Of a DNA stretch of 64,000 bases, positions 3,001 to 49,544 are shown in pieces. The position numbers and the translations under genes were made by a program. The DNA comes from Escherichia coli (GTDB lineage Bacteria; Pseudomonadota; Gammaproteobacteria; Enterobacterales; Enterobacteriaceae): NCBI RefSeq assembly GCF_003790525.1, contig NZ_CP033635.1; one strand, 5' to 3'. Below the pieces are notes generated by a model. It saw nothing but the letters and a program-made list of their open reading frames with translations, was not told the origin of the DNA and made no database searches. Position 1 is the stretch's first letter, and every line of letters begins with the position of its first letter.

Positions 3001-6000
3001 CCTGGACACGATCTTTACGGTGGTTACCAGCCCGGATAGCAGCCAGGCGAAAATGTGGGGGCATATGCCGGAAACGGTGACGGCTGAGGACGGTACGGTC
3101 TTTAAACGCCCGCGGTTACTGAAGGAACTGAGCAGTCAGACTGGGCGAACATCAACGCTTGAAGACAACGAAAACTGGGCGTTGTTTAACATTAATTATG
3201 CGAGCTCTTCCACGACGTATAGTGGCTGTGGAACCAACTATATTCCGACTCAGGCCGGTCTGACGTCACTGTTTGCTAATAATGCGGGCAACACCATGAA
3301 AACCGTGCAGGGCTGGCCGGTGGCAACGCGCTATTTGTCCAACACGTCCGACAATGGCAGCATGGAGCAGCGTAACTACAAGGCGGTCGATCTCAGCAAT
3401 GGCACGAGTGCGGCAGTGTCATCAACGGCGCTGCAACTGCTGACCTGTCAGACTACACCGGTAACCACGGTGAGCCAAATCCTGCTGGAAGCGGCAGATC
3501 CGGCGACGCTGGATACCACCTATAACGTGGTAAAAGCGAAAAAAGGCGAAGAATCCGTGGTGCGCGTCACCACCAAAGATGCACAAGGCAACCTGGTGGG
3601 CAATACGGCATTTATCCTGACGCGTGCCAACAGCGTGAGTCGGGCTAATGCATCAGCGACGATGAGCGTGGGCTCGTTGACGGTGACGGATGCCTGGGGC
3701 AATACGCGAAATAATTTCCAGTCGACAAGTGAAACCATTTACGGCGTGACCGGTGCCGACGGGTCAACGACATTGACCCTGAAACAGGATAACAGTACCG
3801 GGTTAAGAACCGATCTCACGGCAAAACTGGATACGTCCAGCAGCGTCAAGGCAACGCTACCGGTGGTCTTTACCGTCGTGACCAGCCCGGATTCGCCAAA
3901 AGCGAATTTTTGGGGACATATGGCCGAAACGGTGGCGGCCTCCGATGGTTCAGTCTATAAACGCCCACTGTTGCTGGCAGAGCTGGCCAACACTGGCGGG
4001 CGACAAATCAGTTCAGAGAACGGGGAAAGCTGGGTACGATTCACCTGGAATCAGTCGACAGATCCTTCTGTAAGCGGCTGCGGCGTTGCGTATATGCCAA
4101 CGTTGGCAGGCCTGCAAGCGTTGTATGACGCTAATAGTGGTAATGCAATGAGTACGGTACAGGGATGGCCGGTAAAAGCGACCTATCTCACCAATACCCC
4201 AAGTGACACGCAAACGGGGAGCCGTTACTACAATGTGGTGCAACTGGATTCTGGCGCAGCCTCGCAAATCACGACGAACACGGGTGTACTGCAAACCTGC
4301 CGTACAACGCCGTTGACGGCTGCCAGCCAGATTACGCTGGAGGCCGCGGATCCTGCGCAATTTGTCAGCATTGACAGCACGCTTAGCGCTGTCAAAGTGC
4401 AGAAAGGCGATAGCGTGCCGATCCGCATTTCGACTAAAGATGCGCAGGGCAATTTCGTCGGCAATACGCCGTTTGCCCTGAAACACGCGAACTCGATCAA
4501 TCGTCAAAATGTGTCGTCATCGCAGAAAGTGTCGGTCACGACGGAGGTGGGTACGACGGTGGATACCAGTGCAACAACCACCCTGTATGGCGTAACCGGG
4601 CCAGACGGAACCACCACGATGACGCTCCGACAGGATGCGTCCACCGGGTTAAGAACCGACTTTTATGCCCTGTTGAACGATACCGGCGTGTCGTCGGACA
4701 CCTTGCCGGTGATCTTTACCGTCATCACCAGCCCGGATACGCCGCTGGCGGCCAACTGGGGCCATATGGCGGAAACCTTTACCAGTAGCGAAGGCGTCAC
4801 CTTCAAGCGGCCTTCCCTCAAAGCTGAACTCTCTGGCGGTACGGCCATAACGGTCAATAATGAAGTCTGGTCGCGCCTGACAGCGGCGGAGAAAGTGGAT
4901 GCCAGCAAGGCCGGGTGTGATGAGACGTATCAACCGCTGGTGAATGACATGCAGGGGTTGTATGCGGATTACCCTAACGGCCAGTTAGGATCGGTGCTCG
5001 GCTTGCCGACGTCTGCCGGGTATTGGTGGGCCTACGACATGATGATGGTTTCTGGCAACTGGACTAATCAGGCATTTTCACCTGTTAATGGTCAGTTGAT
5101 GCAGGCATCGTCCAGCTATACGGCGATCGTGATGTGTCTGGTAGAACCACATACGGAAGCAGCCACAATAGAGCTTACTTCAACGGCGCAGGACGCAGCA
5201 AAATCGGCCAGTAATGGTGGACGACCGAGCGCCGTAGCGAAGAAAGGCGAGACGATTCCGTTGACGGTGACCGTGCGTGATAGCGCCGGGAACCCGATGC
5301 CATATGCTGAGTTTACCCTCACGCGTGAAACGACGCTGGATCGCTCGAAAGCAACCGTTAACACGAGTGCGGACGACCTTACCGTAACGGCATTGGTACC
5401 CGCGAATACAAATAGTGTGTTGGCAGCAAGTGGAGCAAAACTGATCGGCACGACGGGCAGCGATGGCAAAGCGACCTTTGAGGTGAGTCAGAATGCGACG
5501 ACCGGGCTGGCGACGCCGTTAACCGTGACGCTGGCGCGTGATACGACGAAAGCCGCCACGCTGGATGTTATCTATACGGTGATCACCAGCCCGGATTCGC
5601 CGAGTGCGAAATTCTGGGGGCATATGCCGGACACCTTTACCAGCTCGACGGGCGTCACCTTCAAACGACCGCTGCTGAAAGCAGAAACCAGCTCAGGCTC
5701 ATCGATTAGCTCTAACGGCGAAGTTTGGTCATATATGAGCAACGCGCAAAATTTAACATCGACAGATTGCCCGCTCGAAAATCAACCGCGCAGTAATGAG
5801 CTGTTGGATTTGTATAGTGATCACCCGAACGGCACGCTAATGACCGACCTGGGGTTACCCGTATATGCAGGTAACTGGTGGGCCTATGATATGGTCATGC
5901 TGAGTGGAACGTCGTGGACTTATCAACTCATCAGCCTGAAAGACGGAACCATTACGCAGAAGGGGACAACCAGTGCGTTGATGCTTTGCCTGGCACAGCC

Positions 6001-24433: not shown

Positions 24434-24764
24434 ATCAGCAGCAGAGCGCAAAGCCGCGCAGCGCGCTCGGCAGTCCGCCGCCGGTGAGCGCAAAATTGAA
24501 CTGGTGCTGGATAAGCAGGAGCAGGAAATGCTGGCGCGGAACTGCGCCGCCCGGCGCCCTGGTCACGATCCCTATGAAATGGCCGAGTACATCGCGCTGC
24601 TGATCCGCCAGGATGATGCACGTGTGCGCGGGCGTATAAAATCGATCAGTAGAAAACGTTGCGGTAAGTGCGGCGAGAGAGTTCCAGTTAATTCATGTCC
24701 GTGTAATGGTGACTCGCAATGCTGGGTGACTAAAGGCTGGCATGAAACGAAATTAATAGTGTGA
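24423..24764 (+). CDS. small zinc-ribbon protein immediately upstream of the late operon (candidate late regulator)
   Basis: C-terminal CGKCGERVPVNSCPCNGDSQC cluster; stop codon lies inside GTGACATGTCAC palindrome. Confidence 0.35.
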   Translation: MMAKSAAERKAAQRARQSAAGERKIELVLDKQEQEMLARNCAARRPGHDPYEMAEYIALLIRQDDARVRGRIKSISRKRCGKCGERVPVNSCPCNGDSQCWVTKGWHETKLIV

Positions 24765-24772
24765 CATGTCAC
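24761..24772. promoter_or_regulatory. 12-bp perfect palindrome GTGACATGTCAC (copy 1)
   Basis: Identical copy at 44886-44897. Confidence 0.4.
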
Positions 24773-30381: not shown

Positions 30382-30674
30382 CAGATTACGAAGATGATCA
30401 ACTGAAAGAAGAAAACGCCCGTAAGCAACGTGACATGGCACAGCGTGAAATTGATGACATTCGCTTTGTCATGAGCAGTGAACAGGGGCGTCGCGTTGTC
30501 TGGTCGGTGCTGGAGAAAGGCCGTGTGTTTTCCGCTATCTCACCGATGGACGCTATGGCAATGGCATTTAATGAGGGGCAACGCAATCTGGCGCTGGAAC
30601 TGTTTCAGCGCGTTATGGCGCATTGCCCTGAACAGTATTTGAAGATGGCCAAAGAGGCCAGTGAACAGGAGTGA
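30378..30674 (+). CDS. hypothetical head protein
   Basis: 98 aa, coupled to neighbours. Confidence 0.35.
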   Translation: MTDYEDDQLKEENARKQRDMAQREIDDIRFVMSSEQGRRVVWSVLEKGRVFSAISPMDAMAMAFNEGQRNLALELFQRVMAHCPEQYLKMAKEASEQE

Positions 30675-41984: not shown

Positions 41985-44459
41985 ATGAGACAGGAATGTA
42001 TACAAGCGGTCCAGCAGGCGGCGCAGCGCACGTTAACGGCGCGAGAAATACAGAACATTGAAGACCGCATTTATCGAAATATGCGCTCCATTGCTCGTGA
42101 TGACCCGATGTCGTGGCGACAACTTTCCGAATCAGAACGGTTGTATCGTGCAGCACAATTGGCATCTGAAGAATTACAGCGAGAAGCGGCATTAAAGAAA
42201 CGTCGTGTGGCCCTCACTATAGCCGCACGTCAGAGATTGGATAAATTTATCAATAGCTATCAAGGGGCTGATGGGAAACTTGGCGCTCTTAACCGTACTA
42301 TTGCTTTTAATGCAGACGGTAAATCGAATTTCCTCTCTGTTGAATCCAGAACAAAAGCCACCCGTGATTATGCATTGAGTCAATTGCAGGAGGCATTCGA
42401 AGCAGTTGATCCTCGCTTTTTTGGTCTGTTTGAAGATGAAGCGGGCGTACGTGACCTGGTATATGAAATGCGGGGGCAAAATACTGGCAATGCTAAAGCA
42501 AGAAAAGGTGCTAAGGCGTGGAGAGAAGTTACAGAGCTGCTGCGCCGCCGGTTTAATGATGCTGGTGGGGACATTGGCTATCTCGAAAACTGGGGGATCC
42601 CTCAACATCATTCTATGGAAAAGGTTGGGGCGGTATCAAAGGATAAGTGGGTTAGCGATGTTATAGGTAAGCTGGATCGCAAATATTATACCCGAGCCGA
42701 TGGACAACTGATGAACGATGCCGAGTTGTCTGAATTTCTTGGAGAGGCTTATAACACGATCGCTACTGGTGGGCTGAATAAGCTTACTGATACCGGAATG
42801 CGAATTTCCGGCGCACGTGCTAACCGTGGTAATGCATCACGACAGATACATTTCAAAGATGCAGATTCCTATCTGCAATATCAGCAACTTTATGGCGATC
42901 GCTCTCTATGGGAAATCATGGTCGGTCACCTGGAAGGTATCAGTAAAGATATTGCGCTGGTGGAAACATATGGCCCAAACCCCGATCATGTTTTCCGCTC
43001 CCTTCTTGATCAGGTTAAGGCAGAAACGGCAACAGCTAACCCGAGTAAAACCGGTAGCGTCGAGCGTCTGGCGAACAAAACAGAGAACTTGTACAACTTT
43101 ATTTCCGGAAAAACACAGCCTGTAGCGAATCCGCACATCGCGCGATGGTCTGACAATATCCGCAACTGGCTGGTTGCCAGCAGACTCGGATCCGCGTTGC
43201 TGTCATCGTTCTCTGATCTTGGAACCATGTATCTGTCTGCGAAGGTTACCAACCTTCCAATGAACCAGTTATTTCGCAACCAGCTTGAAGCTATGGACCC
43301 AACGAACCGTACAGAACTTGCGCGGGCGCGCCGCGCTGGCCTGGCGATGGAATCTCTACTTGGCAGCGTTAACCGCTGGGCGATGGATAATATGGGGCCG
43401 TCTGTGTCTCGTTGGGCGGCAACGGCGGTAATGCGTGCCAGTGGGCTTACAGCATGGTCAGATGCGCACAAGCGCGCCTATGGCGTAACCATGATGGGAA
43501 GCCTGGGAGAAGTAGTGTCACGGACACCAGACCTTCGTAGCCTCGATGACTCTGATTTTCGTATCCTGAAAAGCAAAGGGATTACTGACACAGACTGGAG
43601 CGTATGGAAGCTGGCGCAACAGGAGGACTGGGGGAACGGTAATAATACGATGCTGACACCGGAAAGCATTATGCGTATCCCTGATTCAGCAGTTAAACAT
43701 CTTGGTGAGCCTGAACGCGTGAAATTTGAGGCAATGCGTAAACTGCTCGGTGCCGTAACTGAAGAAGTTGATATGGCTGTTATTACACCGGGCGCACGTG
43801 AACAGATGTTCGTAGGGTCTGGTCTTCAGCGTGGAACATGGAAAGGTGAATTAACGAGAAGTGTTTTCCTGTTTAAATCGTTCCCTATCTCGGTAGTTAT
43901 GCGTCACTGGCATAGAGCTATGGGGATGCCGTCTGCTGGTGGGCGTGCGGCATATATAGCAACGTTTTTAGCAAGCACAACCATGCTTGGTGCTCTTTCC
44001 ATGCAGATTACTGATCTTATTAATGGGAGAAATCCAAAAGAAATGACCGGTGACAACATGGTTAAATTCTGGATAAATGCATTTTTAAAAGGTGGTGGGG
44101 CAGGGTTGTATGGTGATTTTCTTTTCTCTGACCACACCAGGTACGGGAGCGGCGCACTAGCGTCGATGCTTGGCCCGGTAGCTGGTCTGGTTGATGACGT
44201 AGTGAAGATTGCTCAGGGCATACCGTTAAATGCTGTGGAAGGGAAGAATGAGCAGACTGGTGGTGATCTGGTTAAGCTTGGGAAAGGTTTGATGCCTGGT
44301 GCGAATCTCTGGTACTTGAAGGCGGCTCTCGATCACATGATCTTTAATCAGATGCAGGAGTATTTTTCACCAGGCTATTTGCGTAAAATGGAGCAACGTT
44401 CGAAGAAAGAGTTTAACCAGACATACTGGTGGCGACCTCAGGATGTCACTCCGCAATAA
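41985..44459 (+). CDS. large internal virion/ejection protein
   Basis: 824 aa, last gene of core structural block. Confidence 0.4.
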   Translation: MRQECIQAVQQAAQRTLTAREIQNIEDRIYRNMRSIARDDPMSWRQLSESERLYRAAQLASEELQREAALKKRRVALTIAARQRLDKFINSYQGADGKLGALNRTIAFNADGKSNFLSVESRTKATRDYALSQLQEAFEAVDPRFFGLFEDEAGVRDLVYEMRGQNTGNAKARKGAKAWREVTELLRRRFNDAGGDIGYLENWGIPQHHSMEKVGAVSKDKWVSDVIGKLDRKYYTRADGQLMNDAELSEFLGEAYNTIATGGLNKLTDTGMRISGARANRGNASRQIHFKDADSYLQYQQLYGDRSLWEIMVGHLEGISKDIALVETYGPNPDHVFRSLLDQVKAETATANPSKTGSVERLANKTENLYNFISGKTQPVANPHIARWSDNIRNWLVASRLGSALLSSFSDLGTMYLSAKVTNLPMNQLFRNQLEAMDPTNRTELARARRAGLAMESLLGSVNRWAMDNMGPSVSRWAATAVMRASGLTAWSDAHKRAYGVTMMGSLGEVVSRTPDLRSLDDSDFRILKSKGITDTDWSVWKLAQQEDWGNGNNTMLTPESIMRIPDSAVKHLGEPERVKFEAMRKLLGAVTEEVDMAVITPGAREQMFVGSGLQRGTWKGELTRSVFLFKSFPISVVMRHWHRAMGMPSAGGRAAYIATFLASTTMLGALSMQITDLINGRNPKEMTGDNMVKFWINAFLKGGGAGLYGDFLFSDHTRYGSGALASMLGPVAGLVDDVVKIAQGIPLNAVEGKNEQTGGDLVKLGKGLMPGANLWYLKAALDHMIFNQMQEYFSPGYLRKMEQRSKKEFNQTYWWRPQDVTPQ

Positions 44460-44468
44460 GGAACAACA

Positions 44469-44882
44469 ATGAAGGAATTATTGCTGTTATCGGTATTTTT
44501 GATATCCGCTTGCTCGACATCCTATGATGTTTATGACGGTGTTGATAAGGCATATTGCGACAAAGTTAAAATGGATTTTTCTCTTGCCAAGACGGCGAAG
44601 GATAGTTGTATTGATCACTACGTCAAGACTTATACCAAGCCAGCCTCATCGGCATCTGATATTGCTGAAGGTGCTGTGTTTGAGTGTAACAAGGTGATAT
44701 CCATCGCAGCGAGTTCTTCATACGATGCTGCTGTATGTGCAATGGCTGAAAGAAACGGCATGTCAGTGCAAAAAATTAATAGCATGATAAGCAGTAATGA
44801 CGAAGCCAAAATAAGAACTGATATCAGCTCGGTGAAAAAAGATGCCATGAACAGAGTTGTAAAATATCAGTCATCTTTATAA
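44469..44882 (+). CDS. lipoprotein (candidate superinfection-exclusion/cargo)
   Basis: Signal peptide with lipobox LISAC; low GC; followed by terminator. Confidence 0.5.
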   Translation: MKELLLLSVFLISACSTSYDVYDGVDKAYCDKVKMDFSLAKTAKDSCIDHYVKTYTKPASSASDIAEGAVFECNKVISIAASSSYDAAVCAMAERNGMSVQKINSMISSNDEAKIRTDISSVKKDAMNRVVKYQSSL

Positions 44883-44885
44883 GTC

Positions 44886-44897
44886 GTGACATGTCAC
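44886..44897. promoter_or_regulatory. 12-bp perfect palindrome GTGACATGTCAC (copy 2)
   Basis: Identical to 24761-24772; followed by hairpin aggccgc tttc gcggcct plus T-run. Confidence 0.4.
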
Positions 44898-44920
44898 AGG
44901 CCGCTTTCGCGGCCTTGTTT

Positions 44921-45082
44921 TTAACGAATGCCACCGCCACCCGGGCGGGAATCCGCAGAACGCCCACCGCAGCGGGAGCCGTCAGCAGCAGTGTCGCTGT
45001 CGTGCTGACAACGACCGGCAAAGGCCTGAGTTGAAGCTACCAGAGACAACAAAACGAACAGTGCAGCAAATGCTTTTTTCAT
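44921..45082 (-). CDS. small secreted Gly/Arg-rich peptide with two Cys (53 aa precursor)
   Basis: MKKAFAALFVLLSLVASTQAFA signal peptide then GRCQHDSDTAADGSRCGGRSADSRPGGGGIR. Confidence 0.3.
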   Translation of the reverse strand: MKKAFAALFVLLSLVASTQAFAGRCQHDSDTAADGSRCGGRSADSRPGGGGIR

Positions 45083-45152
45083 TGTGAAATTTCCATCTAT
45101 AAGCCACCTCAATGTGGCGTCAATGAGTGTAGCACTGACTTTTGTTTCGCCC

Positions 45153-45175
45153 ACAAAAAAGCCCGCAGCGCGGGC
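45153..45175 (-). terminator. rho-independent terminator after two-gene cassette
   Basis: gcccgc agcg cgggc hairpin with T-run on minus strand. Confidence 0.5.
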
Positions 45176-45615
45176 TATTCTTCTTCATCATTAAAAAGCG
45201 GATTGTTGTTTCCATCTGATGAAAGGAAAGGTATGTGTTCTCTTGAAAATCCAACAATGACAATTTCATTATCATTTTTTGCATAATGAATGCATTCATT
45301 AGAATGCCTTCCGCCAGGGTTGAAATTTAAGTTAATGGTATAATTCTTAAATGTGTTTGGATACCATGTTGGCCCACAATGATAATGCCAATAATTCTCT
45401 TGCTCATAATTGTCTGAGCCGGGAATTTTATCATGGTTATCATCAACCCACGAGGGCTTGTTTTTTCCAACAAGCGCCCTTCCATTGGCAACATCCTCTA
45501 AAAAACTTTGTATGATTTTTATTTCATCATCAGTAAGGAAAGGTCCGTCTACAGCGAAAGGGGTGTTGCTTTCCCCATGTAGAAAACTATTAGATATTCT
45601 AATGTTAAACTTCAA
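45175..45615 (-). CDS. hypothetical ~147-aa protein, downstream gene of two-gene cassette (candidate toxin/effector)
   Basis: TTG start with SD AGGAG 6 nt upstream (an in-frame ATG at 45756 has no SD and overlaps the upstream gene); contains WHYHCGP and GGRHSNECIH segments; low GC. Confidence 0.4.
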   Translation of the reverse strand: MKFNIRISNSFLHGESNTPFAVDGPFLTDDEIKIIQSFLEDVANGRALVGKNKPSWVDDNHDKIPGSDNYEQENYWHYHCGPTWYPNTFKNYTINLNFNPGGRHSNECIHYAKNDNEIVIVGFSREHIPFLSSDGNNNPLFNDEEE

Positions 45616-45635
45616 GGAAAACTCCTGATGTGCTT

Positions 45636-45803
45636 CTATTTGGAGCGAAATGCCGCCTTGAAGTCGCTGAAAGATGTTCCTGTCTGGTAAACCATATCCT
45701 TGTCGCGCTCTTTGCTTGCGCGGCCAAGCATAACTTTTCCAATGACATCCCAGCATTGCTTGGCTTGTTCATTGTGCTGAGTACGATTTTTCAACGCTGT
45801 CAT
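45636..45803 (-). CDS. hypothetical 55-aa protein, upstream gene of two-gene cassette (candidate antitoxin/regulator)
   Basis: ATG with SD AGGAGG; MTALKNRTQHNEQAKQCWDVIGKVMLGRASKERDKDMVYQTGTSFSDFKAAFRSK; not in ORF track (<60 aa). Confidence 0.4.
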   Translation of the reverse strand: MTALKNRTQHNEQAKQCWDVIGKVMLGRASKERDKDMVYQTGTSFSDFKAAFRSK

Positions 45804-45815
45804 ATCGCGCCTCCT

Positions 45816-45830
45816 TTACCTTTAAGGTAA
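45816..45830. promoter_or_regulatory. TTACC-N5-GGTAA operator-like site (perfect) upstream of two-gene cassette
   Basis: TTACC TTTAA GGTAA. Confidence 0.5.
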
Positions 45831-45902
45831 TAGTACGCTATTCACCCACAGTCTGCAATCTGTACAGAATTATTTAAAGGCACATCCCTGTGCCGCCGCC
45901 CG

Positions 45903-46592
45903 TCAGAAGAACCCAGCCTTGTCGTTGATGTACTCCGCGTGGGTCTGGATATCACGCAGGCATTTGCTCACACCAACAATGTAGCAGAACATGGTGGTCA
46001 GCTCCGCCGCCGCGCCCGATACGTCGTGCCCGTCTTCCTGTAACTGGTTCAGCAGATTCATCAGCAGTGAGTTCTCCGTCAGGCCGAGAACACCAGACGG
46101 AGAATGAATCAGGCTGCGGTAGCCGGGCTTCAGTGGGGCACTGTAGGTTTTGTTCTCTATCTTCATTGCCTGCATCACTGCTGATGCTGTGGCGTTGGCT
46201 ACCTGGTCGGCAACTATCTTTATGCGTTCTTCCTGCGGGAGCGAGTTTTTAATGTAACTTCCGGTGCGGCGGATCTGAGGAAGAACCTCACCTGTAACCC
46301 ATTTACGAAAGCGGTAGGGGATAGTGCCTGGTGTCACTGCGTCGCGGCAGCGGAGGATCAGTGTGTAGAGGCCTGACTCGTTGATAATATTGGTTTCACC
46401 TTGACGGCCTAAGTTAAATTTAGCCCTTTCATCATCATCAAGAGATTTTATTGACATAGTGGGGTTTGTCAGTTGAAGAGCTTTAATAACGTCTTTGGCA
46501 ACAAACCAAGGATTTCCATCAATAACAATGGCTCGAATGGTGGCTTCTGATTCAAAATGAAAAACAGATGGGGTTACGTTAGCAGTCATAGT
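45903..46592 (-). CDS. Bro-N domain protein (antirepressor-like)
   Basis: Start MTANVTPSVFHFESEATIRAIVIDGNPWFVAKDVIKALQL typical of Bro-N/KilA-N-type N-terminus; SD AAAGGTGAT. Confidence 0.55.
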   Translation of the reverse strand, partial: TMTANVTPSVFHFESEATIRAIVIDGNPWFVAKDVIKALQLTNPTMSIKSLDDDERAKFNLGRQGETNIINESGLYTLILRCRDAVTPGTIPYRFRKWVTGEVLPQIRRTGSYIKNSLPQEERIKIVADQVANATASAVMQAMKIENKTYSAPLKPGYRSLIHSPSGVLGLTENSLLMNLLNQLQEDGHDVSGAAAELTTMFCYIVGVSKCLRDIQTHAEYINDKAGFF

Positions 46593-46855
46593 GATCACCT
46601 TTGTAGTTAGGTTAATCACCACTACCGACGCCAATCGGTTGGTGGTGAACTGTGCAGGGTTGGCGTAACCGGCTACAAAGGACCCGGCGCACCTTTCGGT
46701 GCCCCCACACAGCCCACCATAGAATAGGTGCGCTTTACACATAAAAAAACCGCTTATGCGGCATATGTGCCTCTGTAGTAACCCGGGACGCCAATCCCGG
46801 CACTGGATTTTGCCAGTGCCCGATTACTATGGCACAAGAGGAGTGCGATGTAAAT

Positions 46856-46870
46856 TTACCGAAAAGGTAA
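46856..46870. promoter_or_regulatory. TTACC-N5-GGTAA operator-like site (perfect)
   Basis: TTACC GAAAA GGTAA. Confidence 0.5.
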
Positions 46871-46901
46871 TAATAAACACTCTACTTGGTAATTGCAAAC
46901 C

Positions 46902-47159
46902 TTATCTGGTTTGTTTTCGTAATTGTTCGGCACAATAGTCGAGATGTGTTTGCAGATCCCGCATAGACATCTGTGAGCTGGTGACGTAGTTAATCAGTGC
47001 AGTCAGTTCGGCAAGTGGGCCATCGACATTAAATCCATCCTTATCGAGATCCCGGAGTAATTTCATCAAGTGCGATCCCTCCACCAGTGACCTGACGCCT
47101 CCCGGCGTGTGAATCCTTTCGGTAAATCCGTCTTCCAGTGGATAGTGATACTGCTGCAT
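46902..47159 (-). CDS. small protein homologous to the C-terminal domain of the adjacent Bro-N protein
   Basis: IHTPGGVRSLVEGSHLMKLLRDLDKDGFNVDGPLAELT aligns with IHSPSGVLGLTENSLLMNLLNQLQEDGHDVSGAAAELT of 45903-46592. Confidence 0.45.
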   Translation of the reverse strand: MQQYHYPLEDGFTERIHTPGGVRSLVEGSHLMKLLRDLDKDGFNVDGPLAELTALINYVTSSQMSMRDLQTHLDYCAEQLRKQTR

Positions 47160-47235
47160 CTTATCTTCTCCATGCAATAACTGTATATTTATACAGTATC
47201 AAATAATTTGTTTGCTATCCAGCACGTTTTGCAAA

Positions 47236-47250
47236 TTACCCGAAAGGTAA
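47236..47250. promoter_or_regulatory. TTACC-N5-GGTAA operator-like site (perfect) in divergent region upstream of tailspike
   Basis: TTACC CGAAA GGTAA. Confidence 0.5.
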
Positions 47251-47354
47251 TATCTATTCGTATTTACAGTCTTTCTATCCATATGTGGTTTTTCAGGTAA
47301 TAGAATAACCAGATATGCGGCGCAACGGGTGCTGCGACTATCTGGAGATTTAAC

Positions 47355-49544
47355 ATGACGGTCTCAACCGAAGTTGACCACAACGAATACACCGGTAACG
47401 GCGTTACGACATCATTTCCGTATACCTTCCGTATTTTCAAAAAAACCGACCTGGTTGTTCAGGTGTCTGACCTGAACGGGAACGTAACAGAATTGGTTCT
47501 GGATACCGGTTATAAGGTAACTGGAGCGGGCACTTATAGTGGCGGTGAAGTGGTTCTCCAGTCGCCGCTTGCTGCTGGCTGGCGAATTACGATAGAGCGT
47601 GTGCTTGATGTGGTGCAGGAGACTGATCTTCGCAATCAGGGAAAATTTTTCCCCGAAGTTCATGAAGATGCATTTGACTACCTGACGATGCTGATCCAGC
47701 GATGTTTTGGGTGGTTCAGACGTGCATTGATGAAACCATCTTTGCTTGCAAAATATTACGATGCAAAGCAAAACAAAATTTCTAACCTTGCAGATCCATC
47801 ATTTGAGCAGGACGCTGTAAATAATCGCTCAATGCGTAATTATGTCGATGCTGCAATCGCCGGGGTTGTTGGTGGTTTTGGTTGGTTTATACCGTCAGGA
47901 AGCGGGGCAAGACAACGAACATTTCAAAGCAAAATGAGGGATATAATTTCTCCTTGTGATTACGAAGATAATATTTTTATGATTAAGGAGTTGATATCCA
48001 AAGGCAAAAATGCCGCTGTTTTTAACTCATATTATACTTTTGTTATTACTGTTGGCGAATGGGGTGATTTCCCTACACTCAAAGATGCAATCATTGCAGC
48101 CCAGTCAATGAGACCTATGTGGGATGGTGGTAATGCTTTCTGCGAAATAAGAATTAAGACCGGGCATATTATCAACTATCAAATTGAATTCAGTTCAGGT
48201 GTTGATTTGTCTTGGATTAAAATAACATCAGAAGACTCAGTGGTTTTCTCTGACACTCGTTTGTTTACTAAAATCGTTAGAACGTATTACGAATACAAGT
48301 ATTTATTTTACATTTGCGATGCAGCAAAAAGTCCTGTATTTGCTATTCAGATCGAAGAAAATAGAGATGATAGCGATGTTTGTGCATTTATTGTAACTCA
48401 AAAAGCTGAACTTAATTTCTATCCGTATTCAGGTGCTCGAAAGTTCTACGTTGGAATTCATGGTAGTTTTGGTGCAAAAATTAGTGCATATCATACCGGA
48501 TGTGCTCCTGATGAGGAAAGTGTTGCTGCATATATGCCAGAAGGGTATTACGTATGTGATTTTTCTTATAGCAGATACTCTTCCCTGCAACTGGTAAATA
48601 ATGTCAAGGCATCAATGCCTGTAAGCAAGTTTGAACGGTGCACAGAGAGTACGGTTGCGTCAGTTAATTGTATTTATAATGTTAAAGCAGATTTTCAGGG
48701 GTCAAGTGCAAGCTATTGTTATATAGGATGGAATGTAAGAGATGGTTCAAATGTTAATATACGCGACCATAAAACTATACATTGCTCATATCGTGGATTA
48801 ACCTGCATTCATACAGCATATGTTGATGCAAGACGACATGACGTTGAAGAAAGTGATGCAGAAACAAGTGGTAAAGTCCTTGAACCAAATATTGAAAAAG
48901 GTTTTTATGGATGTGCACTTGGTGTGCGTATTGATGGTGCGGGTTGCGTTGATGTTGCTGGTAATGATATGCGCAATTGTGGAACAGCCGTTAATGCAGA
49001 CACTGGTGCTGTTATTTCAGGAAAGGCTGTAGATATCTCAGGGGCTGAGCTGGGATTTGATTGCCATGCAGGAGCATCTGTTAATTTTCCAAGGCTATGG
49101 GGTACAGATATAAAAAAATTAATGCACCTCCAAGATGGTGTAAGGTTTAACTCTAATATTTGTCATGTATTTGGTGCAAATCCCACAAAAGATATTAGAT
49201 GGATTGATGTAGAGAGATCTGAAGCTTCTTTTATGAATGCAACGCTGGATGCAGATTCAGGATTTATTGCCGACTGTGGTAGTAGGATAACCATTGAAGG
49301 AAGTAAAGTTAAAAACCAAACAATAAGAAGTTTTTTTGGATCATATGTGGCTATAAATAATACTGTTGCTGACAGAACTTATTCAGATATAGCCGATGTT
49401 CCGCAGTTGACTATTAGTGGAGGATCTTTTATTTCTGCTACAGGATATTCTAATTCTGACTCCAGCCCTCTGAGGTTGAGCACAACACGAAATACACTTG
49501 GCGTTGGAGGAGCCATATTTTCAACCAATGGGGAAGTTTCATGA
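47355..49544 (+). CDS. tailspike/tail fiber protein
   Basis: 729 aa; conserved-looking N-terminal particle-binding region then AT-rich C-terminal region with repetitive beta-rich sequence. Confidence 0.65.
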   Translation: MTVSTEVDHNEYTGNGVTTSFPYTFRIFKKTDLVVQVSDLNGNVTELVLDTGYKVTGAGTYSGGEVVLQSPLAAGWRITIERVLDVVQETDLRNQGKFFPEVHEDAFDYLTMLIQRCFGWFRRALMKPSLLAKYYDAKQNKISNLADPSFEQDAVNNRSMRNYVDAAIAGVVGGFGWFIPSGSGARQRTFQSKMRDIISPCDYEDNIFMIKELISKGKNAAVFNSYYTFVITVGEWGDFPTLKDAIIAAQSMRPMWDGGNAFCEIRIKTGHIINYQIEFSSGVDLSWIKITSEDSVVFSDTRLFTKIVRTYYEYKYLFYICDAAKSPVFAIQIEENRDDSDVCAFIVTQKAELNFYPYSGARKFYVGIHGSFGAKISAYHTGCAPDEESVAAYMPEGYYVCDFSYSRYSSLQLVNNVKASMPVSKFERCTESTVASVNCIYNVKADFQGSSASYCYIGWNVRDGSNVNIRDHKTIHCSYRGLTCIHTAYVDARRHDVEESDAETSGKVLEPNIEKGFYGCALGVRIDGAGCVDVAGNDMRNCGTAVNADTGAVISGKAVDISGAELGFDCHAGASVNFPRLWGTDIKKLMHLQDGVRFNSNICHVFGANPTKDIRWIDVERSEASFMNATLDADSGFIADCGSRITIEGSKVKNQTIRSFFGSYVAINNTVADRTYSDIADVPQLTISGGSFISATGYSNSDSSPLRLSTTRNTLGVGGAIFSTNGEVS

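Follow-up and report, generated by a model that had tools for sequence, protein, structure and literature searches.

What do two small genes that face each other at the end of the virion block of a prophage contribute, and do they belong together? We addressed this question for positions 44,469 to 45,082 of a 64,000-nucleotide stretch of Escherichia coli DNA (contig NZ_CP033635.1 of assembly GCF_003790525.1; hereafter the window), where a lipoprotein gene on the + strand meets the gene of a very small exported peptide on the − strand. The original prediction, made from the letters alone, had treated both genes as one feature and had proposed the lipoprotein as a candidate for receptor masking or superinfection exclusion, by analogy with Cor and Llp. 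With moderate confidence, we read the region instead as two independent accessory genes of the moron type, both encoding products for export to the envelope, which are carried by an epsilon15/phiV10-like prophage and do not form a two-gene system.

Two convergent genes in an epsilon15/phiV10-like prophage

Judged by its matches to phiV10 and to many E. coli prophages, the host element is an epsilon15/phiV10-like prophage (genus Uetakevirus) in the E. coli chromosome. Over the 1-kb region around both genes, several complete E. coli genomes have prophages with 100% identity, and phiV10, phiv142-3, HEMP4, TL-2011b and others match in part. In the RefSeq record of MS 198-1, the + strand runs from the internal-virion genes through the gene of a T7 gp14-family core protein to three large genes (2.5, 1.8 and 2.5 kb); the lipoprotein and peptide genes come next, and beyond them the − strand carries a 146-aa open reading frame (ORF), a 55-aa ORF and a BRO-N gene, followed by the tailspike and lysis genes. 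phiV10 has the same gene frame, but a different gene 3′ of its gp20.

Both ORFs were recovered with the predicted coordinates and translations, convergent and 3′ of the virion block, and both are coding sequences (CDS) in the PGAP/RefSeq annotation, each as a 'hypothetical protein'. The two genes and the hairpin between them are as follows.

44469..44882, + strand: CDS of the 137-aa prolipoprotein (ORF translation, PGAP WP_000661385.1, phrog_8691); the mature protein has 123 aa from Cys15
44921..45082, − strand: CDS of the 53-aa precursor of the exported peptide (ORF, PGAP WP_000708858.1, phrog_14503/phrog_3117, family alignments, codon analysis); signal-peptide codons at 45017-45082, 31-aa mature part at 44924-45016
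44898..44915, both strands: shared hairpin AGGCCGC-TTTC-GCGGCCT, which reads as a canonical intrinsic terminator with a T-run on the + strand and lies, without a U-run, 5 nt 3′ of the peptide stop on the − strand (terminator scan and sequence)

The genes are 38 bp apart, and this G+C-rich hairpin is the only one in the spacer. The G+C content is 39.4% in the lipoprotein gene, 49-50% in the virion block and 67% in the part encoding the mature peptide, in agreement with the low value noticed earlier for the lipoprotein gene.

The two genes occur independently

Genes that are adjacent and convergent, share a hairpin and both encode exported products could form a functional pair, such as a toxin with its immunity protein or a ligand with its receptor. 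Their distribution argues against this. Of 5,426 complete E. coli genomes, 444 (~8%, about 1 in 12) have the peptide gene and 21 the lipoprotein gene, and among 80 viral contigs that bear the peptide gene the lipoprotein is found in only 10. In strains 1435-1438 the lipoprotein gene is kept while the peptide gene is reduced to 38 of its 162 bases, and in P4/FP4 and OZ547033 the match extends no further than the 3′ end of the peptide gene. Because the two genes differ so widely in frequency and the lipoprotein gene occurs without an intact peptide gene, they are independent and unrelated and do not constitute a two-gene system. A functional pair, already disfavoured, is thus highly improbable, and the grouping of both genes in one feature was not supported.

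The peptide carries an export signal and is under strong selection

The 53-aa precursor consists of a signal peptide, MKKAFAALFVLLSLVASTQAFA, and a 31-aa mature part, GRCQHDSDTAADGSRCGGRSADSRPGGGGIR, with two cysteines, exactly as had been predicted. Read from the sequence, the signal peptide has the n-h-c organization, with MKK, a hydrophobic stretch and A-F-A (positions −3 to −1) in front of a glycine. Across the peptide family, alanine at −1 and glycine at +1 are nearly invariant and position −3 is occupied by A, S or V; the N-terminal 22 residues are variable but hydrophobic, and the mature part is almost frozen. Its conserved core spans 25 residues, from C25 to G49.

Profile comparison matched the peptide to phrog_14503 ('membrane associated protein'; E 2.3e-40 over residues 1-53 of 53) and to phrog_3117 (E 4.1e-36). 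A word-indexed search returned 57 relatives, many of them named 'transmembrane anchored protein', in E. coli, Shigella, Klebsiella, Citrobacter, Cronobacter, Franconibacter, Pectobacterium, Dickeya and Salmonella, and a profile search added relatives in Pantoea, Raoultella, Kosakonia, Pseudomonas, Mesorhizobium and Methylobacterium. Outside E. coli, prophages that carry the peptide gene include those of Klebsiella, Pectobacterium, Pseudomonas and Mesorhizobium. The NCBI name probably reflects a signal peptide that was taken for a transmembrane (TM) helix. The peptide profile found no relative in the PDB, and a search through all ORFs of the window revealed neither a mimic of the peptide core nor another copy. 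A literature search on the NCBI name and the peptide motif returned no papers on the peptide, none on the lipoprotein was found in the searchable literature, and the ZX5 and CFT073 papers contain nothing on these two genes.

To quantify selection, we used a codon alignment of 10 divergent loci from different genera. The mature part gave a pN of 0.12 and a pS of 0.74 (pN/pS 0.16), as against a pN of 0.31 and a pS of 0.66 (pN/pS 0.46) for the signal peptide, and most of the non-synonymous change in the mature part falls at its two ends. Synonymous sites are saturated in both parts. Because they are saturated while the amino-acid sequence of the mature part is kept, the comparison points to a translated, exported peptide under strong selection, whose sequence is itself the functional object, and it excludes a purely DNA- or RNA-level explanation.

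Such an explanation would hold that the 53-aa ORF is not translated and that the DNA is kept as a terminator, a recombination linker or an RNA, which would suit its 100% identity in 80 mosaic contigs at a recombination-prone junction. Against it stand not only the saturated synonymous sites beside an invariant amino-acid core, but also a signal peptide that stays hydrophobic and keeps A-x-A as it diverges, and a protein motif that reaches other phyla; moreover, an Rfam scan of 44300-47400 found no family overlapping the peptide or the lipoprotein gene. We regard this alternative as vanishingly improbable.

Three further candidates were considered for the peptide and rejected. A 77-aa version of the ORF with a GTG start has an N-terminal extension that other genera do not conserve and that begins beside the upstream terminator; an ATCUN-type copper site is incompatible with the varying distance between the N-terminus and the histidine; and for a canonical calcium-binding DxDxDG loop the acidic residues are not invariant.

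A 25-residue C-terminal module

We scanned one genome per species for the core with the pattern DGSRCG[GD]R[SA]. The scan gave 59 loci, in Enterobacterales, Pasteurellaceae, Tolumonas, many Rhizobiales, Azospirillum, Paraburkholderia and several Cyanobacteria. About two-thirds of them are stand-alone precursors of 41-68 aa, and in the rest the core ends larger proteins, as listed here.

Lipoproteins of ~110-155 aa: Mesorhizobium, Pseudorhizobium
Secreted proteins of ~100-140 aa: Nostocales
Lipoprotein: Paraburkholderia
Secreted protein with a Pfam SNase domain (E 1.4e-4): Methyloligella sp. GL2, locus L158, ~4390-5081

In 57 sequences with 50 distinct cores, the core forms the extreme C-terminus, with 0-5 residues beyond it, and follows the consensus C-x5-[DQ]-x-A-x-D-G-S-R-C-G-[GD]-R-[AS]-[AS]-x-x-[RK]-P-G-G. 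Core positions 10-18 are fixed by the scan pattern, so that invariance there is partly by construction; among the positions on which the pattern imposes nothing, C1, A8, R/K22 and G24 are conserved in 50 of 50 cores and G25 in 48 of 50. No Pfam model picked up the module, whether in the phage peptide, in the SNase fusion or in a Pseudorhizobium lipoprotein. The peptide thus appears, from these comparisons, to be the free-standing form of a widespread and apparently undescribed 25-residue C-terminal module that is spread over several phyla. Since the invariant residues of the core comprise three arginines, one aspartate, four glycines and two cysteines, it is tempting to speculate that a small disulfide-locked loop presents arginines to an anionic ligand.

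Transcription and neighbourhoods of the peptide gene

On the 5′ side of the peptide gene, two features could be assigned.

45160..45176, − strand: intrinsic terminator of the upstream leftward (BRO-N) operon, AGCCCGCGCTGCGGGCT followed by TTTTTG (terminator scan)
45103..45134, − strand: putative own promoter and 5′ leader, with an extended −10 element TG-n-TACACT (45134->45126) and a hairpin GCCAC-ATTGAG-GTGGC (45118->45103) (by eye, homologous loci and RNA folds)

The terminator of the BRO-N operon, a strong one, sets the peptide gene apart as a unit. With terminators on both sides in the window, 3′ hairpins or terminators at nearly all homologous loci and canonical terminators of their own behind the Pseudomonas and Mesorhizobium copies, the gene appears to be a separate transcription unit. 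We infer the promoter and leader from their counterparts at homologous loci: the −10-like elements at the corresponding position are TACAAT and TAAACT in Klebsiella and TATAAAAT in Cronobacter, each followed by a hairpin of different sequence. By genus (loci L087, L095, L104 and L106 included), the arms of the leader hairpin read GCCAC/GTGGC, ACCACC/GGTGGT, AGGCCAT/ATGGCCT, GCGCC/GGCGC and CACCCCC/GGGGGTG. A hairpin just before the start codon is also present in Pseudomonas and Mesorhizobium, where in the latter its 3′ arm contains the Shine-Dalgarno sequence. The z-scores of the leader folds are modest (−0.5 to −3.4), and the leader hairpin is absent in three other contexts.

The E. coli version additionally has a five-codon upstream ORF, ATG GAA ATT TCA CAA TGA (MEISQ*; window 45079-45096, − strand), preceded by GAGGTGG at 7-nt spacing. 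Its stop codon overlaps the start of the peptide gene (ATGA), and the main ATG has only a weak Shine-Dalgarno sequence, an arrangement that suggests translational coupling and is not kept in Klebsiella or Cronobacter.

The peptide gene lies recurrently, although not exclusively, at the end of a block encoding very large ejected or polyvalent proteins, as in E. coli, Klebsiella, Cronobacter, Pseudomonas, Mesorhizobium, Pectobacterium and Dickeya. Its orientation relative to its neighbours varies: in Enterobacterales, Pectobacterium and Dickeya it lies antisense to the late genes, in Pseudomonas on their strand. In Pectobacterium, Dickeya and one E. coli element (L086, L091 and L090), very large polyvalent proteins with MuF_C, LPD1, LPD5 or LPD38 domains are encoded near the peptide gene, in the first two directly beside it.

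Other settings were also found. In a lambdoid contig (L093, 3927-5153), a cI-like repressor gene (helix-turn-helix and Peptidase_S24), a gene with a Rap1a domain and, 8 nt later, the peptide gene follow each other on one strand, and this position behind the repressor, a classical one for cargo expressed in lysogens, implies expression in the lysogen. Rap1a is a family of immunity proteins against type VI secretion system (T6SS) effectors, and the trio looks like a lysogen-expressed cassette for periplasmic protection. The peptide gene also lies 3′ of a lysis cassette and RelB/YafQ (L090) and near a MobA/MobL relaxase gene (L089). Finally, in JGI contigs (L099-L102, ~1.65 Mb) a 53-aa member sits in the chromosome, flanked by bacA (undecaprenyl-diphosphatase) and ffh and away from any phage genes; the protein of this bacA-ffh locus is indexed in 106 blocks of the collection, and the count covers 24 contigs, with at least 20 similar places merged.

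These neighbourhoods bear on the idea that the peptide serves the infection cycle of the phage and not the lysogen, either as a periplasmic factor tied to the ejected internal-virion proteins or in the control of envelope breakdown. Its position 3′ of large internal-virion or polyvalent genes in seven genera, from E. coli to Dickeya, and its location on the same strand as the late genes in Pseudomonas would fit such a role. In most hosts, however, the gene is bracketed by terminators and antisense to the late genes, copies are found behind cI, after the lysis cassette, near the relaxase gene and outside prophages, and larger cellular proteins end in the same module. We consider a role in the phage cycle doubtful.

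The lipoprotein is a small orphan modelled as helical

Two features at the 5′ end of the lipoprotein gene are relevant to its export and expression.

44469..44513, + strand: lipoprotein signal peptide and lipobox, MKELLLLSVFLISA followed by the cysteine (read from sequence)
44455..44468, + strand: 9-nt gap 3′ of the gp17-like stop (44459) with the Shine-Dalgarno sequence AAGGA, in the sequence ...CAATAAGGAACAACAATG (read from sequence)

The 137-aa protein begins with MKELLLLSVFLISAC and has the lipobox L-I-S-A-C with Cys15, as originally noticed; this agrees with the bacterial-lipoprotein signal pattern [LVI][ASTVI][GAS]C, and one member of the family weakly matches Pfam LPAM_1. A lipobox (LISAC, LSGC, IVGC or LFGC) is present in 11 of 11 aligned relatives. 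Under the +2 rule, a serine at position +2 leads to Lol-dependent sorting to the outer membrane. The mature lipoprotein has a serine at +2, which predicts an outer-membrane location.

The lipobox cysteine and four further cysteines (C15; C30, C47, C73 and C90) are invariant in the family alignment, down to 26% identity. The AlphaFold2 (AF2) model of the protein is all-helical (pLDDT 86.7), with helices that include residues 24-55 and 74-96; C30 and C47 are located on the former, C90 on the latter, and C73 just before it. Given these helices, the register of the cysteines (30+90 = 47+73 = 120) suggests that C30-C90 and C47-C73 disulfides staple an antiparallel helix pair, a prediction that derives from residue register and not from inspected model coordinates.

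The family is tiny. A PHROG without an assigned function, phrog_8691, matches the lipoprotein over its full length (E 1.6e-91), the relatives form 17 clusters at 90% identity, all of ~137 aa, and an exhaustive HMMER search found 8 representatives among 1.84 billion proteins, so that there is no deep family. A tblastn search of 50,697 phage records gave no match. For the two proteins, the family libraries (Pfam, NCBIfam, PADLOC and PHROGs) gave only PHROGs without an assigned function and sub-threshold noise, the latter comprising Linker_histone, T4_Spackle (E 0.42), CC_3452 (E 0.009) and HxsA3 (E 0.07). Sequence searches of the PDB with both family profiles returned only designed helical repeats and signal-peptide matches, and a structural search with the lipoprotein model matched no solved or viral structure. 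Against AFDB50, Foldseek placed the model close to a Salmonella lipoprotein (E 1.9e-5, TM-score 0.76) and, as the third-best match, to a Serratia protein annotated as DUF1311 (E 3.5e-5, TM-score 0.73).

DUF1311/LprI proteins are periplasmic and helical, have four conserved cysteines in two disulfides, and have been linked to cell-wall enzymes and to T6SS immunity; they are discussed as lysozyme-inhibitor-like or T6SS-immunity-like, although the activity of the domain itself is unproven (PMC7933661, PMC12135965). The lipoprotein could accordingly be a periplasmic inhibitor or immunity protein of this class, directed against a cell-wall-degrading enzyme such as the endolysin or virion lysozyme of its own phage, the lysozyme of an incoming phage or a T6SS effector. 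The Foldseek match, the four invariant cysteines with a helical fold as in LprI-domain proteins, the implication of DUF1311 proteins in T6SS immunity and the very weak Pfam match to T4 Spackle fit this possibility. Because PF07007 does not match the lipoprotein family, we treat DUF1311/LprI as a weak lead from modelling and not as membership, and we consider an inhibitor of this class unlikely. Viewed alone, the lipoprotein gene is unremarkable orphan cargo whose one lead, DUF1311-like, is weak.

The lipoprotein gene follows the upstream stop by only 9 nt, and a promoter scan of the ~1 kb before it (43400-44469, + strand) showed no promoter-like site, so that it looks like the last cistron of the late virion operon; a terminator lies directly 3′ of it. 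From such a position, expression in the lysogen is not implied.

A 139-aa relative with 29% identity (P0077; L097 and L098) resides in AlpA/DUF3987 (P4-like) islands, beside UvrD/DEAD-MZB helicase genes or the HsdR gene of a type I restriction system. These surroundings resemble defence islands.

The lipoprotein occupies a hypervariable cargo slot

To define the place of the lipoprotein gene, we surveyed 80 related viral contigs with an identical peptide gene and tallied by hand, with approximate counts, what lies between the peptide gene and the last internal-virion gene.

98-aa multi-TM protein: ~19 contigs
Ant/BRO-type regulators: ~17 contigs
137-aa lipoprotein, as in the window: ~10 contigs
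283-aa secreted protein: ~9 contigs
186-aa secreted protein: ~7 contigs
149-aa cytoplasmic protein: ~6 contigs
131-aa lipoprotein with a 62-aa TM protein: ~5 contigs
46-aa TM protein of the phiV10 type: ~3 contigs
113-aa TM protein: ~1 contig
123-aa secreted protein, together with the 98-aa protein (L045): ~1 contig

The slot thus accommodates at least 10 alternative cargoes, about two-thirds of which have a signal peptide, a lipobox or TM segments, and every alternative cargo belongs to a PHROG without an assigned function. Weak similarity to the lipoprotein profile was detected in two of them: the C-terminal 90 residues of the 283-aa protein share the cysteine positions and an identical SSASDI motif (hhalign E 1.9e-4, 47% probability), and the 123-aa protein aligns over a 42-residue stretch (hhalign E 7e-4, 26% probability). 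Presence and absence follow the pattern of morons, in that the lipoprotein is missing from phiV10 and from many prophages, and phiV10 has no peptide gene either. This accessory status, together with the variability of the slot, bears out the earlier view that neither gene is structural.

The slot is, by its gene content, a cargo hot spot enriched for envelope proteins, which fits cargo for host-envelope conversion or exclusion and says nothing specific about receptor masking. The lipoprotein gene marks this well-defined hypervariable slot just 3′ of the last ejection-protein gene, and the slot could be mined for exclusion or envelope-modifying genes.

Elements around the two genes

Between the lipoprotein stop and the terminator hairpin lies a further element.

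44886..44897, no strand: perfect 12-bp palindrome GTGACATGTCAC

In the window the palindrome occurs exactly at 24761-24772 and 44886-44897 and with one mismatch at 30430-30441, giving three matches with at most one mismatch where 0.09 are expected. Klebsiella (L004) and Cronobacter (L087) have it too, 3′ of the hairpin that corresponds to the one here, and L095 has half of it; the palindrome could be a protein-binding site or a module-junction sequence.

Rfam identified, on the − strand at window positions 46638-46832, a C4 antisense RNA (79.5 bits), isrK (74.7 bits) and a c4 a1/b1 target element (44.1 bits, just below the gathering threshold). Since these elements sit immediately upstream of the BRO-N gene (45903-46589), a P1 immI-like c4/antirepressor module heads the leftward operon that adjoins the peptide gene. 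Two more cargo ORFs lie on the − strand between the BRO-N and peptide genes, one of 146 aa (45175-45615, 36% GC, phrog_5954) and one of 55 aa (45636-45803, phrog_8607), and both are found in some related prophages only.

Possible roles at the envelope of the lysogen

The analysis shows that both genes are real, carry export signals and are independent of each other, and that the peptide is under selection; what either gene does in the cell, we infer from sequence, models and genomic setting. The lipoprotein would be a low-GC insertion in the hypervariable slot and the last cistron of the late virion operon, exported by the Sec pathway, lipidated at Cys15 and, with Ser at +2, sorted by Lol to the inner face of the outer membrane. 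There, a helical bundle with two stapling disulfides may bind a periplasmic or outer-membrane partner, which could be an envelope protein used by an incoming phage or a cell-wall-active enzyme, as for DUF1311/LprI-like proteins. The peptide would be cleaved after A-F-A to give a hydrophilic product of ~3 kDa (~3,060 Da reduced, ~3,058 Da with the disulfide) with a 12-residue Cys-Cys loop and an Arg/Gly-rich tail, and may bind, in the lysogen's periplasm, a target that is conserved throughout Proteobacteria. That either gene protects the lysogen or acts in exclusion at the envelope is the likeliest single reading of these observations, ahead of a role in the phage cycle, and we put it forward tentatively.

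The more specific proposal of Cor/Llp-like receptor masking, in which the lipoprotein would attach to a protein of the outer membrane at its periplasmic face and prevent adsorption or DNA entry, draws on the analogy with a phage-borne lipoprotein of the outer-membrane type at the end of a virion block, in a slot dominated by envelope cargo, and on the distant relative beside defence genes in P4-like islands. The part of the original prediction that stands is positional, namely that an envelope-rich slot fits exclusion or conversion cargo. The homology searches lent receptor masking no support: no exclusion or defence family in PHROGs, Pfam, NCBIfam or PADLOC matched, no PADLOC model matched either protein or the two neighbouring ORFs, and the lipoprotein resembles neither in sequence nor in fold T5 Llp, T4 Spackle or an exclusion-annotated PHROG or PADLOC family. 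Phages of the genus Uetakevirus recognise the O-antigen via tailspikes, and not a protein receptor such as FhuA. In the phiV10 record, moreover, exclusion is annotated as O-antigen acetylation by Oac, and the lipoprotein gene looks late-expressed. Receptor masking is thus improbable, to about the same degree as the DUF1311-type inhibitor.

For the peptide, the module could bind a ubiquitous anionic envelope ligand, for example peptidoglycan or a lipid-linked or lipopolysaccharide (LPS) phosphate or carboxylate, and may have been captured by many types of temperate phage as a secreted periplasmic 'cap' that alters the access of incoming phages or enzymes. We rate this as a long shot; if true, lysogenic conversion by a peptide would be a new class, and ~8% of E. 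coli genomes would carry it.

Several findings weigh against the preferred reading of two envelope-directed accessory genes. The AF2 model of the peptide (pLDDT 65.5) gave no confident fold for the mature part and was not used. The consensus promoter scanner did not call the peptide promoter, which was read by eye, and the invariance of the core is in part built into the scan pattern. The peptide occurs in very different phage types and in one apparently non-prophage bacA-ffh copy, which argues against a role specific to one phage type. On the lipoprotein side, the gene is apparently late-expressed, unlike classical prophage-expressed exclusion genes, PF07007 matched neither the lipoprotein nor any of 11 family members, and the DUF1311 link derives from one Foldseek match.

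For Enterobacteria, the cargo that prophages carry at fixed slots is a principal origin of envelope changes, of phage resistance and of fitness traits. Of the two products, the peptide is of greater interest, being common in E. coli and without a Pfam family, structure or literature found. It is among the most strongly constrained small phage products documented here, with at least 20 residues essentially frozen from Enterobacterales to Rhizobiales. Its target, if found, would define a new extracytoplasmic module and perhaps a new, very small effector of lysogenic conversion.

Comparison with known systems

The lipoprotein resembles Cor of phi80, N15 and HK022 and Llp of T5 in being a small phage lipoprotein that is not part of the virion, is encoded beside virion or tail genes and is predicted to face the periplasm from the outer membrane. 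It differs in its mature length of 123 aa, its all-helical model and its two predicted disulfides, and the proposed likeness found no backing in sequence: Llp (PDB 8a60, chain 8a60_B) gave only a signal-peptide match (E = 2) and no fold match, and no similarity to Cor was detectable in the library scans, which are the comparison that covered Cor, its sequence and structure not having been compared directly. With DUF1311/LprI proteins (PF07007; LprI of M. tuberculosis, ScwA of Salmonella), it would share export, a helical fold as modelled and four conserved cysteines, and some of these proteins are also lipoproteins (PMC7933661).

T4 Spackle and P1 Sim are, like both products described here, phage proteins with a signal peptide, and they act in the periplasm. 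The Spackle Pfam match to the lipoprotein covers the signal peptide (E 0.42) and shows no significant similarity; the peptide is three to eight times smaller than Spackle and Sim. The peptide core is reminiscent of Excalibur (PF05901) as a short, extracytoplasmic, Cys-bounded loop ending in D-G-x-x-C, a resemblance and not membership. Excalibur occurs at the C-terminus of a secreted SNase-type nuclease, which may be compared with the SNase fusion in Methyloligella. In contrast to Excalibur, the peptide has no Pfam match at E <= 10, its loop comprises 12 residues as against ~30, the DxDxDG spacing is missing, and only core D10 is invariant among the acidic residues of the loop.

In kind, the two genes can be set beside the lambda-type morons bor and lom and the seroconversion cargo of epsilon15-like phages (Oac of phiV10), within the moron concept as summarised in PMC3573123. 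There is no homology to bor, lom or Oac, and the peptide is a soluble 3-kDa product, not a membrane protein or an enzyme. The peptide gene would be moron-like in its apparent own promoter and terminator, and the lipoprotein gene is so in its atypical GC content, with a terminator but no promoter of its own found. What both genes share with these systems is their character as non-essential cargo at fixed permissive sites, with products targeted to the envelope.

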